64,000 nucleotides of DNA. Source: Escherichia phage cardinal. How positions within the stretch are numbered: the stretch's first letter is position 1; every line of letters starts with the position of its first letter. Shown in pieces: positions 14,084 to 43,688 of this stretch. Position numbers and translations under genes: made by a program. The notes below the pieces were generated by a model. It saw only the letters and a list, made by a program, of their open reading frames with translations, ran no database searches and was not told the origin of the DNA. The stretch lies in sequence record PQ567651.1; one strand, written 5' to 3'.

Positions 14084-14542
14084 TTATGCTCCATTAAAGA
14101 CGGGGCGTGTAGCATTACGTTCATCATTCACTGTAATAAGGTTTTTCATAACCATAACACCCTGAATATAGCCTAACCAACGATGGCGTTTGGTTTCAGA
14201 CATACCATTACACCCATCCTGAATTTCATTCAACATCCACAGTAAGTGGGAAGCACCTGTTTCACTGGTATCTGGATCTTCTACAGAACTAAGAATCGTT
14301 TCATAGCGTTCACAAATTTCTGGGTAGAATTCATAATCCTGTTGTACATCTCGCATTTCTCGAATGAAGTGACGAGCAATAGGCTTCCCACGAAAATATT
14401 CATTGATGAAATCAATAACACACATCTCACTGCCTGTCACCACGGAAGGCGTTCCTATGTTAAATTGAACACTCACACCGCATTCTTTTACAAGATTATG
14501 TACACGCTCAGTGTTAGCAAGATACAAAGATACAGTTTTCAT
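14084..14542 (-). CDS. hypothetical protein (first gene of leftward block)
   Basis: 152-aa ORF next to the large non-coding region. Confidence 0.5.
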   Translation of the reverse strand: MKTVSLYLANTERVHNLVKECGVSVQFNIGTPSVVTGSEMCVIDFINEYFRGKPIARHFIREMRDVQQDYEFYPEICERYETILSSVEDPDTSETGASHLLWMLNEIQDGCNGMSETKRHRWLGYIQGVMVMKNLITVNDERNATRPVFNGA

Positions 14543-15000
14543 TTACACCTCTCATTAGTAGTTTGTTATGCGCGATATTGCATATTTTATGGAACACAGT
14601 GTACAGACATTTCTATTCAATGCAAGCATTATTTGCATCTTATAAATTTACGTCTCATGCCACACATCATACAGCGTCTTTTCATCTATTACAAGAACAG
14701 CAACCTAGGAACATCATTAATGGAGGGATTAGTATAGGGATTAGTATAGGATTTCCCTATCAATTATTCTATATATACCTAATATTTTTAACACACCCCT
14801 TTGTACATAATATAGACAAATAAATATCTATGCCACAAAAATTTTCTGGTATACCCGATTTATTTCGACACACCCCCTTTTCATAAGCGTAAAGTCAATA
14901 ATATCAATAACTTGCCGCAAAATACTGCTCGCTTGCGAGAGGTGCTTAACGCGATTTTCAGCGCCCCCCCGATTTCTGCCGACCGTCCCCCTCAAATATC

Positions 15001-15036
15001 AATGAGAATAATTATCATTTGCATTATCATTCAATG
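15001..15036. promoter_or_regulatory. Fur-box-like palindromic site(s)
   Basis: aatgagaataattatcatttgcattatcattcaatg; overlapping (n)AT(a/t)AT hexamers. Confidence 0.4.
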
Positions 15037-15198
15037 ACTTATAAGACTTTTGATTATTTTCTGAGCAAGAAAGGTACTACTCACAACAAAACAGATAAAT
15101 TCTAAGTAAATCAATGGCTTGGCAAGTCTAAACATCTATATACACCTTGCCAAATGAAATGATCTGGCGTGAAATAGTGCCACCCGTGGAAGATAGCT

Positions 15199-15217
15199 GA
15201 TAATGATTATCATTTGC
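15199..15217. promoter_or_regulatory. Fur-box-like 19-mer
   Basis: GATAATGATTATCATTTGC vs E. coli Fur consensus GATAATGATAATCATTATC (16/19). Confidence 0.45.
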
Positions 15218-15450
15218 ATACTTTCTGTACTATAAAACCGACTAAAAATCAAGATAATTCTGATTTATTGCGCTTTTAAGAGAGTAGGCTCAACAAATAA
15301 CAACAAATGAGGTATGTTATAGGGGCAATAGTATGAAAAATCATCTATTCAGATGTAAATAATTTTGCGCAATAGTGGTAATATTTTTCTTGACAAGAAA
15401 GATTTCTTTGTGTGCACATAGCGCCCCTGGAGGGTGGCGCATTATGATCA

Positions 15451-15504
15451 TCAGTGTCATTATTCATTTCAGTGTCATTATTCATTTCAGTGTCATTATT
15501 CACC
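15451..15504. repeat. tandem direct repeat, 3 x 18 bp
   Basis: tcagtgtcattattcatt repeated three times head-to-tail. Confidence 0.9.
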
Positions 15505-15604
15505 ATGTTTATTATTGCATAGCTTATTATATGGAGCTTATATTATAGCCAATGTTCTAAACATTAGCTAATAATAACGCACCGCAACAATGTAAGGGAT
15601 ACAA

Positions 15605-15745
15605 TATACCATGTATATTGTTGCGCTTGCAATTGTTGCAAGCTACATAAGCACAAATAATAACTATCGGTGATGGTTATTATGTGGGGTGTGTAGTTGC
15701 GTTATTATTAGCCGCCTATGTGTCCGGCATAGGCTGCTAATGATA
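15605..15745. repeat. inverted-repeat cluster
   Basis: gcttgcaa-ttg-ttgcaagc palindrome and gccgcctatg...cataggctgc hairpin. Confidence 0.6.
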
Positions 15746-15779
15746 CGCTTGCGAATTATATTTCTTGTTATAGTTATTG

Positions 15780-16203
15780 TATGGAATGATTACTACATGA
15801 AATGGTTACTGTATGAAATGATTATCTAAGTAATAGATAGGAAGGTAAAGATTAGATCATAAATAGATAGGATGTGAATTATTTAGTAATGTTACTAACA
15901 ATTTAATAGTTACTTTGTGCAACAATTCGATAGATTATAATTGTAGTTTTAAGGGTTAGATAGATTATATTTAGCTTAGTAATGATTTATATTAGTTATT
16001 ATTGTTTAATACAATGTTATCAATGAGATAGTAACAGTAAGTTATAAATAAAGGTGAGATAATTAGTTTTAATTTAGTTAGATAACTTATTATTTTATAG
16101 GTTAGATGGTCTTAAGTTAAGAATGATTCTCATTATTGCATTATGCAATTTATTGCATAAATAATCAGCTATAAATAAGAATGATTATCATTTAAGAGGA
16201 AAG
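15780..16203. repeat. AT-rich iteron-like region with Fur-box-like sites near 3' end
   Basis: repeated tagatag(g) and atgaaatg(g/a)tta motifs; agaatgattctcattattgc and agaatgattatcattta near 16120-16203. Confidence 0.5.
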
Positions 16204-16402
16204 ACAAGAAAAAGGCTGTTTTTGCCAGGTAATTACATGAAGAAATTAAAAATAAGCGGTCTAAAACACGTTGTAAGCGCCTTATGATCTTCATGGTATG
16301 GTTGTTCATCTGCTCCTTGATTAGCTCGATACCGCGATCTATTCACTTTTTTCGGTGAACGTTTTTGATAGGTAAAAGCTATCATCTTTATTTAGGTAAA
16401 AA

Positions 16403-16430
16403 GAAAGGGCGCAATAAGCGCCCTTGTTTG
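16403..16430 (-). terminator. hairpin terminator after gene 16440-16811
   Basis: aagggcgc-aataa-gcgccctt plus T-run on minus strand. Confidence 0.5.
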
Positions 16431-16439
16431 AAATGTTAT

Positions 16440-16811
16440 TTACTGATAAGCTGGATCGTTTGTTATATCAATCCAATGAGATAAATTAATTTTATTTTTT
16501 GCTTTCATTTTCTCGATCAAACGTTCGGCTAATGTTTCTGAACGAATATAAACATGCTCGCTAAAATCTTGCCCCGTTTCTTCGTCGATCATTTCTCTAT
16601 ATTCAACCTTGCCGATAAACGCATAAGTTTTACCCGTGTACCAGTTATGTAAATGGATCTCGCATTTATAATCATCGCTATACCCTTCGGTTGTTCTAAC
16701 TTCAACCAAGTCACCTTTAAACACTGATAAGCACCACATAGGATCACGATCTACAGCGCCGTTAAAATCTTTACCGTTTACAGTAGCCGCCAGGTTGATG
16801 ATATTGCTCAT
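16440..16811 (-). CDS. hypothetical protein
   Basis: 123-aa ORF with GAGGAA RBS. Confidence 0.55.
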   Translation of the reverse strand: MSNIINLAATVNGKDFNGAVDRDPMWCLSVFKGDLVEVRTTEGYSDDYKCEIHLHNWYTGKTYAFIGKVEYREMIDEETGQDFSEHVYIRSETLAERLIEKMKAKNKINLSHWIDITNDPAYQ

Positions 16812-26180: not shown

Positions 26181-26184
26181 CGCT

Positions 26185-26217
26185 TGACAAGCGCCCGACA
26201 AGGGCGCATAATCTCTT
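26185..26217 (+). promoter_or_regulatory. sigma70-like promoter with palindrome in spacer
   Basis: TTGACA-agcgcccgacaagggcg-CATAAT; gcgccc...gggcgc inverted repeat. Confidence 0.5.
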
Positions 26218-26435
26218 ACATAGACAGGAACGCCTACCAATGGCGCTAAACTTGGTGATGATAGCCGCAGGGCATCGACAGCTATAATCGCCGGTAGCTC
26301 GTCTAAAATAAATTTGTAAAGAAATGTAAAGATAAAAATAATCGCTTGCTTTTGTTGTTGGTTATGCTATTCTTATTGTATGGCGAGGGGACACGGGAGC
26401 GCGAGACAAACACCGCCCCTGCGCGTTATTTTCTA

Positions 26436-26550
26436 AATGAGAAAATTCTCATTTGCTAATGATTCTCATTCTCTTACTGAGAATGATTATCACTTACATA
26501 ATTAAATGATAATGATTCTCATTTACAAATGAGAATGATTATCATACGCA
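26436..26550. promoter_or_regulatory. cluster of Fur-box-like palindromes
   Basis: aaatgagaaaattctcattt, aatgattctcattctc, gagaatgattatcac, gataatgattctcattta, gagaatgattatcatacg. Confidence 0.45.
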
Positions 26551-26564
26551 TACCTATAAAAACA

Positions 26565-26775
26565 CGAAATTGAACTTTTCATTTTTGATTTTTCTACGGA
26601 AAAAGGCAAAAAAACTTTAAATAAACTGGGGAATTTTTAAAAAATTGAAGTTTTCATTTTCAAAATCTGGATAGAAATACGTACAAAAACTTTAAATAAT
26701 TTTGACCAAACTTGAACTTTTCATTTTCAAAATTTGTACCCAAAAATCTGTAAAAACTTTAAATAATTTTGTACT
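26565..26775. repeat. three ~65-bp imperfect direct repeats
   Basis: units start aaattgaa(c/g)ttttcatttt... and end ...aaaaactttaaataa at about 26568, 26642, 26711. Confidence 0.8.
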
Positions 26776-27082
26776 TTTTATAAAAATGATTTTACTGTTC
26801 TGTTATAAGTAGTAGTTAAGAGATAGTATGCCTTTTAAAGATCAGATACCATAGTCAAACAAACAAATTAAATACTTTATTAACAGAGTACAGAATAATA
26901 TTTACTCTGGATATATTATTCAGAGGGTGGATTTCCGTACATGAAACCCACACCCCTTTTTATAAAAATAAAAATTTTCAAAATATCAGTAAATATCAGA
27001 TTGTGCTTTTAGATAAACAGCAAGGTCTGTATGCCATTTTCCTAAAAGATTTTGTCCTTTCCAACAGTCCTTATTTTCCACA

Positions 27083-42583: not shown

Positions 42584-43441
42584 ATGACCCAAAAACTATA
42601 TGAGGATGTAATCGGATTCCTCGAACAAACATCCGAAGAATTTACTCGTGAAAATGCAAACAAACCTGCAATGATTGTTAATACTCACCGAGATTTACTA
42701 GCAGGTATCCTAAGCAAGCACATGGCAATGACCCATATTTTACCTGAAGATTTAGCAGAATGGCATAAAAGTGGGTATGGTCACATCCACGATTTAGATT
42801 ATTTACTCTCACCTTTAACTAATTGTTGCCTGGTAAATTACCAAGATATGCTTGAGAACGGTTTCCGTATTGGTAATGCACATATTGAAAAACCAAAATC
42901 TATCGGTGTAGCGACTACTGTCCTAACTCAAATTATTCAAGCAGTAGCTTCTAGCCAATATGGTGGACAAACTTGTGCACATGTTGATACTGGGCTTAGT
43001 CAATACGTTAAAGCAAGTTTTAATAAAATATATGCCGATGTTGGCGATTATGATATTGCTATGCGTATGGTAGATAAACAGGTCTATGATGCAATGCAAA
43101 CTTTAATCTACCAGGTGAACACTCTAATGAGTGTAAATGGTCAGTCACCTTTTATAACAATTAGTTTAGGTTTGGATACCTCTGCTTTTGGTAGAATGAT
43201 CACTAAAAACTACCTAATGGTGCACAAACAAGGATTGGGAAAAGATAGGGTAACTCCTGTGTTTCCTAAAGTTATCTTCTTCTTGGAAGATGGTGTTAAC
43301 ATGAAAGCTGGCGATCCAAACTATGATTTGAAGCAACTGGCAATGGAGTGTTGTGCTGAACGCATTTATCCTGATTTTATCTCTGTACCTTTAAACAAAG
43401 AAGTTACAGGATCTTCAGATGGTCGCGTCACAAGCATGGGT
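42584..43441 (+). CDS. nrdD: anaerobic ribonucleoside-triphosphate reductase NrdD, exon 1 (3' boundary approximate)
   Basis: N-terminal NrdD-like sequence ...GYGHIHDLDY...; frame hits stop inside intron. Confidence 0.75.
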
Positions 43442-43688
43442 AAACTATAACTGCTCATGTAAAATCTGCCTAAACGGGGGAACTCTCAACGAGACAATCC
43501 CGTGCTAAACGTAACAGAACTCCCAACACAGAAGAAGGGGGGTACTATTACGAAATGCCTAACGACTAGCTGTGATGAATGTAGCAGCGTAGGGTGTAAG
43601 CCTATGACACCCCAAATGGTAGACATGCTTTAAGCATGAAGATATAGTCTGATCTGCATGGTGACATGCAGCAGCACGTAATGGTGCG
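43442..43688 (+). ncRNA. group I self-splicing intron (ORF-less) in nrdD; boundaries approximate
   Basis: aaatctgcctaaacggggg...gagacaatcccgtgctaaa...aatgcctaacgacta...aagatatagtctga.ctgcatggtgacatgcag resembles the T4 nrdD (sunY) intron core as recalled from memory. Confidence 0.7.

Follow-up and report, generated by a model that had tools for sequence, protein, structure and literature searches.

We analysed a 64,000-nucleotide stretch of the genome of Escherichia phage cardinal (sequence record PQ567651.1; hereafter the window), in which a first-pass annotation, made from the letters alone, had singled out positions 14543-16439 as a non-coding hub that might be a replication origin, a packaging site or a terminal-repeat boundary. 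Our analysis indicates that this region is likely to be the control region at the genome terminus of a phi92-like myophage (Stephanstirmvirinae), holding a direct terminal repeat (DTR), an early promoter and a neighbouring structured element. The proposal of a terminal-repeat boundary thus proved right, by homology to the DTR of phi92, but the features that had been put forward for a terminus (18-mers, palindromes and AT-rich iterons) all lie outside the DTR and do not themselves form the terminus.

A 2.2-kb segment around the flagged stretch matches 101 phage records, the best of which are Justusliebigvirus genomes at 94-97% identity, and the source phage is a member of this genus: a phi92-like myophage of the Stephanstirmvirinae with a genome of about 147 kb. 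The region is flanked by two minus-strand genes, homologues of phi92 gp001 (14084-14542) and gp248 (16440-16811). These are the first and the last genes of the linear phi92 genome, an arrangement that first suggested that the genome ends are contained in the region. The gp248 homologue is a T4 30.8-like protein that a protein search finds in more than 1000 phage records, and is as such uninformative for termini.

The direct terminal repeat and its edges

The GenBank record of phi92 (FR775895) annotates identical 343-bp repeats, PHI92_DTR-L and DTR-R, at both ends of the genome. This repeat aligns end to end with positions 14947-15290 of the window at 98% identity, with 5 mismatches and one indel, and this 344-bp block (to which no strand is assigned) is almost certainly a short direct terminal repeat of the phi92 type. 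A DTR of this type is already known and annotated for phi92, and is not new. The window holds one copy of it, which implies an assembly in which the repeat was collapsed and which was opened elsewhere.

Other relatives agree with this placement. The record of Mt1B1_P17 (Phapecoctavirus) has an exact 328-bp repeat at its start and at its end, and the boundaries are homologous, its first bases (AACGCGAATTTTC) and last bases (AGAAGATGCT) being homologous to window positions 14948 and 15290, respectively. The records of phi92, UAB_1, VEcB, W22, PHB05 and PD06 stop at precisely the base that is homologous to 15290, and that of BME3 starts at the base homologous to 14949; in total, at least seven public records stop at 15290 or begin at 14947/8. 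The homology to the phi92 and Mt1B1_P17 repeats and the shared record ends therefore indicate that the packaging cuts fall inside the flagged region. A 342-bp DTR determined by PhageTerm has been reported in the literature for BME3, and one paper describes the genomes of Stephanstirmvirinae as all ending in DTRs. Within the genus the DTR is 95-99% identical, compared with 87-94% for its right flank. A lambda-type cos site, with a single nick and cohesive ends, was discarded, given that relatives have a duplicated end of 328-343 bp.

As a separate observation, the right end of the BME3 record (PP239276, L007; also L004), at 146557-147371, looks mis-assembled and contains Ns: a copy of the homologue of window 15291-15729 is abruptly joined, in the middle of what is helix P5 of the structured element described below, to the homologue of 14875 onward, and the annotated 'DTR-L' (146957-147298) is about 70 bp off the true terminal 342 bp.

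Both edges of the repeat carry the same short sequence. At the left boundary, GCTTAAC (14944-14950, plus strand) would be cut as GCT/TAAC by homology and matches the right-hand physical end of phi92 DNA; at the right boundary, GCTCAAC (15288-15294, plus strand) would be cut as GCT/CAAC and matches the left-hand one. In sequence, the left edge is GTGCT/TAACGCGA and the right one GGCT/CAACA, giving GCT/YAAC at both. We aligned the boundaries in 12 lineages (from two genera, one Klebsiella phage and several phages known from metagenomes), and in 10 of these GCTTAAC (GCTTAACGCGA) and GCTCAAC (GCTCAACA) bound a block of 329-412 bp. The heptamer occurs 8 times in the window against 14.9 occurrences expected; as it is not enriched, its presence at both DTR edges is unlikely to be due to chance. 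These data suggest that GCT/YAAC is the cleavage motif of the terminase.

Four C-rich repeats of the GATTT-N-CCCCC type, all in the plus orientation, straddle the left boundary (14777-14801, 14854-14878, 14951-14968 and 14968-14992). They include the ACACACCCC(C)TT motif (repeat family D4) that had been reported earlier and that we located at 14777, 14854 and 14968. The expression [GA]ATT[TA]-N4-11-[CA]CCCC has only three matches on both strands of the whole 64 kb, all of them at 14857-14991, and the repeat blocks are conserved in other lineages. By analogy with lambda cosB, they are candidate recognition sites for the terminase small subunit.

Several points weigh against this assignment of the ends and of the cut motif. 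The ends of the source phage itself are deduced from relatives that are 95-98% identical, those of phi92 are taken as annotated in its GenBank record, and the shared record ends may partly reflect re-orientation of genomes to match phi92. In addition, the boundary motif has one-base variants in phiWec188 (GCTGAAC) and in lineages L018 (GCTCGAC) and L024 (GCTCAGC).

A structured element beside the right edge

Folding and covariation define, at 15567-15742 on the plus strand, a conserved structured element of about 175 nt with five helices. P1 (15567-15581 / 15698-15712) closes the structure; inside it are P2 (about 15583-15591 / 15617-15625), a hairpin of variable length in most lineages, P3 (15625-15632 / 15636-15643), and P4, in two parts (P4a, 15644-15648 / 15691-15695, and P4b, 15660-15668 / 15672-15680); P5 (15714-15721 / 15727-15734) follows. 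The perfect palindrome GCTTGCAA-TTG-TTGCAAGC noticed in the first-pass annotation is indeed present, at 15625-15643, as one helix (P3) of this larger conserved structure. Folded as RNA, the plus strand of the element has a minimum free energy of -82.2 kcal/mol (z = -8.6), compared with -63.5 for the minus strand.

The element is the only part of 15291-16300 that is conserved in other genera, at about 80% identity in about 70 records. Diverged copies were added by pattern scans of IMG/VR, which gave only 3-4 relatives, and of metagenomes, and the resulting alignment contains 21 distinct sequences from perhaps 6-7 independent lineages. In this alignment 99.3% of the cells are paired, compared with 26-50% when the partners are slid by 1-3 columns, and compensatory double changes are found in 14 of the 47 pairs, compared with 1-4 in the slid controls. 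None of 500 shuffles reached the observed pairing values, these being counts of shuffles and not probabilities. In P1, for example, A-U has become U-A in arall and C-G in KP13-26, C-G and G-C are swapped in Phapecoctavirus, and a G-C pair has changed to A-U in L018, while P4b has been almost wholly rewritten and is still paired in L018, L024 and L029. The non-Watson-Crick pairs comprise 54 G·U against a single A·C, and a covariance model of the element scores 168.7 bits on the plus strand versus 51.1 on the minus strand; this bias and these scores argue that the structure exists on one strand only. We are highly confident that the element is a selected, strand-specific structure.

On balance, we favour the view that this structure is an RNA, a candidate new non-coding RNA. 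A candidate promoter (TTGCAT-18-TATATT, 15515-15544, plus strand) has its -10 box ending 22 nt ahead of P1, and sigma-70-like sites with a -10 ending 0-25 nt ahead of P1 occur in most lineages. The best plus-strand promoter score upstream of P1 averages 7.75, versus 5.11 in controls (Mann-Whitney p = 6e-5, over 12 lineages that are not independent). Other observations argue against an RNA: strand specificity alone is no proof of RNA, since single-stranded DNA can form G·T pairs too; the candidate promoters are moderate (4.6-10 bits) and are poor in L024 and L033; no intrinsic (U-tract) terminator follows P5; and no transcriptome or transcription start site data for Stephanstirmvirinae were found in the searchable literature.

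The element has no relative among the families that we searched. Rfam 15, which includes the phi29 pRNA, tRNA-like structures, ribozymes and Y RNA, gave nothing relevant at E <= 1 between 14000 and 17000 (a chance snoRNA match had an E of 0.86), and a scan of the whole window at the gathering score gave no match in the flagged region. The element model found no second copy in the window and no match in rV5 between 88 and 138 kb. A pattern scan of 185,579 bacterial and archaeal genomes returned three chance matches, in bacterial metagenome-assembled genomes, none of which matched the element model.

We also observed that the hexamer GCTAAT (often TGCTAATGAT) occurs in every lineage where P1 begins, directly behind P5 and at several places in the flanking sequence (window 15563-15742, L012-L034). 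It could offer the 3' strand of P1 other pairing partners, or be an iteron to which a protein binds.

Downstream of the element, positions 15745-16160 form an AT-rich tract of 18-28% GC that holds a 16-nt tandem array and iterated ATAGATWR and AATGATT motifs. The AT-rich stretch with tagatag motifs described earlier is well borne out: GC content is 18-25% over 15800-16099, compared with 37% for the window, and TAGATAG is found there three times when 0.5 would be expected from length. Every lineage has a low-GC tract after the element, without conservation of its sequence.

Promoters, palindromes and other features of the region

All promoter calls reported here are consensus matches in AT-rich DNA. 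Within the DTR, a minus-strand sigma-70 promoter (-35 TTGGCA at 15153-15148, 17-nt spacer, -10 TAGACT at 15130-15125) aims across the left boundary at gp001. It is the top-scoring promoter of the region in the window and in phi92 (where the -35 is TTGACA), L024, L029, L033 and L034. A plus-strand candidate in the DTR (TTATCA-18-TATAAA, 15207-15236) was dropped, its conservation being inconsistent among lineages. A match to the consensus for integration host factor (IHF), AATCAATGGCTTG (WATCAANNNNTTR), at 15109-15121 on the plus strand, overlaps the predicted start of the DTR promoter, and among lineages its consensus positions are kept and its N positions vary.

Between the DTR and the first early gene lies a unique leader (14543-14946, minus strand). 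It contains a sigma-70-like promoter, TTGTAA-17-TATGAT (14694-14666, minus strand), found in the homologous place in five lineages, a 40-bp block (14602-14641) that is 97.5% identical in Phapecoctavirus, and a 12-mer repeat of the GGGATTAGTATA type (14724-14750, 2.2 copies). In inny, PATM and BME3, a cassette of hypothetical genes of about 0.7 kb is inserted exactly at 14640/14641, just upstream of the 40-bp block (L001 1596-2331, L002 1715-2450, L007 997-1362); it holds two genes in inny and PATM and one annotated gene in BME3, and is absent from the source window and from arall.

A family of palindromes with the form AATGAGAAT-N-ATTCTCATT has six matches in the window, against 0.15 expected. 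The first, s1 (AATGAGAAT-A-ATTATCATT, 15001-15019), has one mismatch to the family consensus, resembles both an operator and a Fur box, and lies in the most conserved block of the DTR; it is conserved in all lineages. The second, s2 (15196-15217), contains TGATAAT-G-ATTATCA, and other lineages have AATGAGAAT-N-ATTCTCATT at this conserved position. Two more members of the family, s3 (16116-16134) and s4 (16174-16192), lie outside the repeat. The same family clusters at 26437-26546 (4-5 sites), within a second non-coding hub.

That second hub (26181-27082) covers about 900 bp free of open reading frames (ORFs) between convergent genes. In it a 67-nt unit occurs 2-3 times (26641-26771), and a related copy lies near 26570. 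Given its convergent setting, the hub may correspond to the 'non-coding' box of rV5, and as a possible origin or regulatory centre it ranks equal to the flagged region.

The motifs listed in the first-pass annotation are real: each of them was found where it had been placed or within a few bases. Their interpretation varies. The 18-mer tandem repeat (15451-15502, plus strand) has 2.9 copies with 100% matches in the window and 0-3 copies in eight close relatives, and a 16-nt array at 15781-15824, annotated as a repeat_region in inny, arall and muut, has 1-4 copies in relatives. Since their copy number varies among near-identical phages, both arrays behave as slippage-prone repeats and not as fixed iterons, and we rejected the 18-mers as a conserved iteron set for this reason. 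The TTGACA that was said to form a promoter-like site with a hairpin is present on the plus strand at 15390-15395 and is followed by a GC-rich hairpin at 15421-15440, but it has no acceptable -10 and sits at the centre of a palindrome, TTTCTTGaCAAGAAA, so that we do not consider it a promoter. Together, this palindrome and the hairpin occupy 15385-15440 on the plus strand (D11).

The absence of coding capacity was also confirmed. The longest ORF in 14543-16439 reaches 86 aa. PHROG families were matched by both flanking genes but by none of the six ORFs (46-86 aa) in the stretch, and a scan for tRNA and tmRNA genes found none. Most curated records of relatives carry no annotation across the homologous stretch. 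An ORF of 50 aa was rejected as a gene because it has a stop or frameshift in close relatives, and one of 46 aa (16169-16309, minus strand) was rejected less completely, on account of stops in some Phapecoctavirus homologues. The latter ORF has an AAGGAG Shine-Dalgarno sequence 3 nt ahead of its ATG and shows 95-100% conservation across the genus; it is a micro-gene confined to this genus, or else no gene at all.

At the right end of the region, an intrinsic terminator (16405-16425, minus strand), present in all lineages and annotated as such in PATM, ends the upstream minus-strand unit, whose last gene is the gp248 homologue. Adjoining it is a conserved non-coding block (16329-16404) with 75-81% identity in all lineages, including diverged metagenomic ones. 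This block contains short inverted repeats (TGATAG..CTATCA and TCAC..GTGA), with neither covariation nor a clear promoter seen in it.

Elsewhere in the window there is a group I catalytic intron at 43396-43671 on the plus strand (Rfam RF00028, 72.3 bits versus a gathering score of 50, E = 2e-16). Among the database records, four labelled 'Campylobacter phage' (A150, A145, C3 and A110a; MG065639, MG065645, MG065656 and MG065689; about 146.4 kb) are 93% identical to the flagged region over its full length, and their host labels probably reflect contamination or mislabelling.

A model of the terminus, its alternatives and its relatives

The features described above can be assembled into a model. 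By homology to phi92, in replicating concatemers one copy of the DTR would join gp248, the last gene, to gp001, the first, just as it does in the collapsed assembly of the window, and the terminase would cut at both DTR edges, with each virion receiving a copy at both ends. The GCT/YAAC motif would specify the cuts, and the C-rich array would position the terminase, possibly with IHF bending the DNA at 15109-15121. After injection, the DTR copy at the left end would supply the first promoter (15153-15125, minus strand), directed inward to the gp001 early operon and backed by the second promoter at 14694-14666. The palindromes s1-s4, which may be operators of a dimeric regulator, either a phage protein or the host Fur, would let this regulator shut or tune the DTR promoter, together with the hub at 26.4-26.5 kb. 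Near the other end of the genome, some 280 bp from it, a presumed non-coding RNA of about 175 nt would be transcribed inward from its own promoter and on into the AT-rich tract.

The position of the AT-rich tract, downstream of a structured and apparently transcribed element, is compatible with a transcription-primed origin, and our best guess is that the transcript of the element runs into the tract and serves replication initiation. A primer or R-loop role is our first guess because of this tract and of the T7-like replisome of these phages (Pol A and a gp4-like primase-helicase in rV5); a regulatory or anti-defence role for the RNA is about equally possible, and assigning any particular function to the element would be tentative at best. 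A fuller version of the idea, in which 15291-16439 is an origin where the transcript forms a primer or R-loop within 15745-16160 and the iterated motifs, with s3 and s4, bind an initiator, we regard as doubtful. The tract lies directly downstream of the element in all lineages, AATGATT and ATAGATWR are enriched 5-7 fold, and there is a promoter-like site upstream of the element; T7 has origins composed of a promoter and AT-rich DNA, including secondary ones beside its terminal repeats, and structured or R-loop primers are known from ColE1 RNA II and T4 oriF. However, the region has no match to the DnaA box (TTWTNCACA), the tandem arrays vary between 0 and 4 copies among near-identical phages, the AT-rich sequence is not conserved between genera, and the second hub at 26.2-27.1 kb, with the same palindromes and its 67-nt repeats, is an equally good candidate. 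GC skew, which the first-pass annotation had proposed as a check, shows no cumulative inflection in the region: its minimum is at 31-32 kb, with only a local blip at 15-16 kb; it follows the direction of transcription and is uninformative here. The element might instead act as DNA, as a folded single strand or cruciform in concatemer processing, like the hairpin-primed repeat duplication proposed for T7, or as a pac structure. It keeps a constant side and orientation and, in most lineages, a roughly constant distance of about 190-330 bp from the DTR edge; its P3 stem is an invariant perfect palindrome without covariation, as for a protein-binding DNA site; it also folds well as DNA (z = -9.0), no terminator follows it, and in T7 an inverted repeat to the left of the right-end repeat gives rise to a hairpin end on concatemers. 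We nevertheless think this quite improbable. The ratio of 54 G·U-type pairs to one A·C and the fact that only one strand folds well speak against extrusion as a cruciform; the closing helix, of 15 bp, encloses 116 nt and hence cannot extrude from duplex DNA; resection from this end in the 5'-to-3' direction would presumably remove the folding plus strand and not expose it; and promoter-like sites are enriched exactly at the 5' edge of the element.

The palindromes, too, allow a more specific reading, in which s1-s4 and the cluster at 26.4-26.5 kb are sites for the host Fur protein, making early transcription from the genome end responsive to iron, or titrating Fur. The E. coli Fur box consensus is GATAATGATAATCATTATC, and positions 15199-15217 match this 19-bp sequence, on the minus strand, at 17 of 19 positions, including a perfect TGATAAT-N-ATTATCA; in the window there are five matches with three mismatches or fewer, against 0.07 expected. 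The family as a whole shares with the Fur box its AT-rich 9-1-9 palindromic layout. Yet the homologous palindromes across lineages read GAGAAT/ATTCTC and not GATAAT/ATTATC as for Fur, so that the conserved form, AATGAGAAT-N-ATTCTCATT, departs from it at one position per half-site, and it is these positions that set specificity within the Fur family. This discrepancy also counts against the role that our model leaves open for Fur, and because of it we see the palindromes as operators of a dimeric regulator for which Fur is one candidate. We found no publication on Fur boxes in such phages, an early regulator of the phage itself would explain the sites just as simply, and gp005 of phi92 is annotated as a predicted transcription regulator; Fur control is therefore, in our view, unlikely. 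Least probable is that everything outside the DTR is functionless spacer made of decayed genes, slippage repeats and recombination scars. The repeats of variable copy number, the gene-cassette indel at 14640/14641 and the poor conservation of most of 15291-16300 outside the genus would fit this, but it is at odds with the compensatory evolution of the element, with the blocks conserved across genera (14602-14641, 15621-15744 and 16329-16404) and with the retention of non-coding DNA at the homologous position in every lineage examined.

The organization of this terminus recalls that of T7 and lambda, in layout and with no family relationship implied. With the DTRs of phi92 and of other Stephanstirmvirinae the likeness is direct: 98% identity to phi92, with shared boundaries and with gp248 and gp001 as neighbours on either side. 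The ends of T7 have a 160-bp terminal repeat, the repeat arrays SRL and SRR, the promoters phiOL and phiOR, and a hairpin intermediate in concatemer processing. Both systems have a short exact DTR with arrays of short repeats at its two inner sides, promoters near the ends, an inverted-repeat structure inside the right end and a related Pol A and primase-helicase replisome. They differ in that there is no sequence relationship, the promoters here are of the host RNA polymerase type and not phage ones, the repeat is twice as long, and the element is a five-helix, strand-specific, covarying structure whereas that of T7 is a simple inverted repeat. The cos site of lambda comprises the nick site cosN, the terminase-binding R sites of cosB and the IHF site I1. 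Like it, the terminus analysed here has a short cut motif beside an array of repeats in the same orientation, with an IHF consensus nearby; lambda, in contrast, forms 12-nt cohesive ends at a single site, while here there would be two cuts 344 bp apart, with putative terminase and IHF sites.

Structured primer or packaging RNAs are represented by ColE1 RNA II, the R-loop transcripts of T4 oriF and oriG and the phi29 pRNA (about 174 nt). These are multi-helix RNAs of 150-550 nt, as our element would be, and they are encoded beside an AT-rich origin (RNA II, T4) or close to a genome end (pRNA). The element matches no Rfam family, and its likeness to hybrid-forming or portal-binding RNAs is one of analogy; phages of the phi29 type, moreover, use protein priming for replication and lack a comparable terminal repeat. 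In rV5 (Vequintavirinae), a related myophage, the 2.6-kb 'non-coding' box (104014-106617 of NC_011041; L040 16015-18618) is also a large ORF-free stretch and has motifs of the types GAGAATAGTTATCATT, GAATGAGAATACC and CAAATATCA (three times). Unlike the region studied here, it lies between convergent units and has no copy of the element and no GCTTAACGCG boundary. It may hold the terminus of rV5.

In the searchable literature we found neither the boundary motif nor the C-rich array described, nor the promoter and IHF site within the repeat, the operator family or the structured element, and public records of phi92-type phages annotate only the repeat. Phages of the phi92 and phAPEC8 types are widely isolated and are present in therapeutic cocktails and in the BASEL collection, and most of their public records are opened arbitrarily. 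True ends at GCT/YAAC, 344 bp apart, with an early promoter in the repeat, would provide a rule for orienting and annotating these genomes; known DTR ends also show where not to insert in engineering, and help to read coverage peaks. The more interesting product is the element, a candidate RNA supported by covariation, strand-specific and absent from Rfam, a few hundred bases from the genome end and beside an AT-rich tract. It is conceivable, if rather improbable, that it represents a new class of terminus-proximal phage RNA, shared by Stephanstirmvirinae and their uncultured relatives and needed for some transaction of the DNA at that end, such as priming into the AT-rich tract, as a functional analogue of ColE1 RNA II or the T4 R-loops, or assisting the terminase, as a functional analogue of the phi29 pRNA in a myophage that depends on terminase. 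Being small and well defined, the element makes the questions of where replication starts and how the terminase recognizes the junction tractable with a few compensatory mutants.

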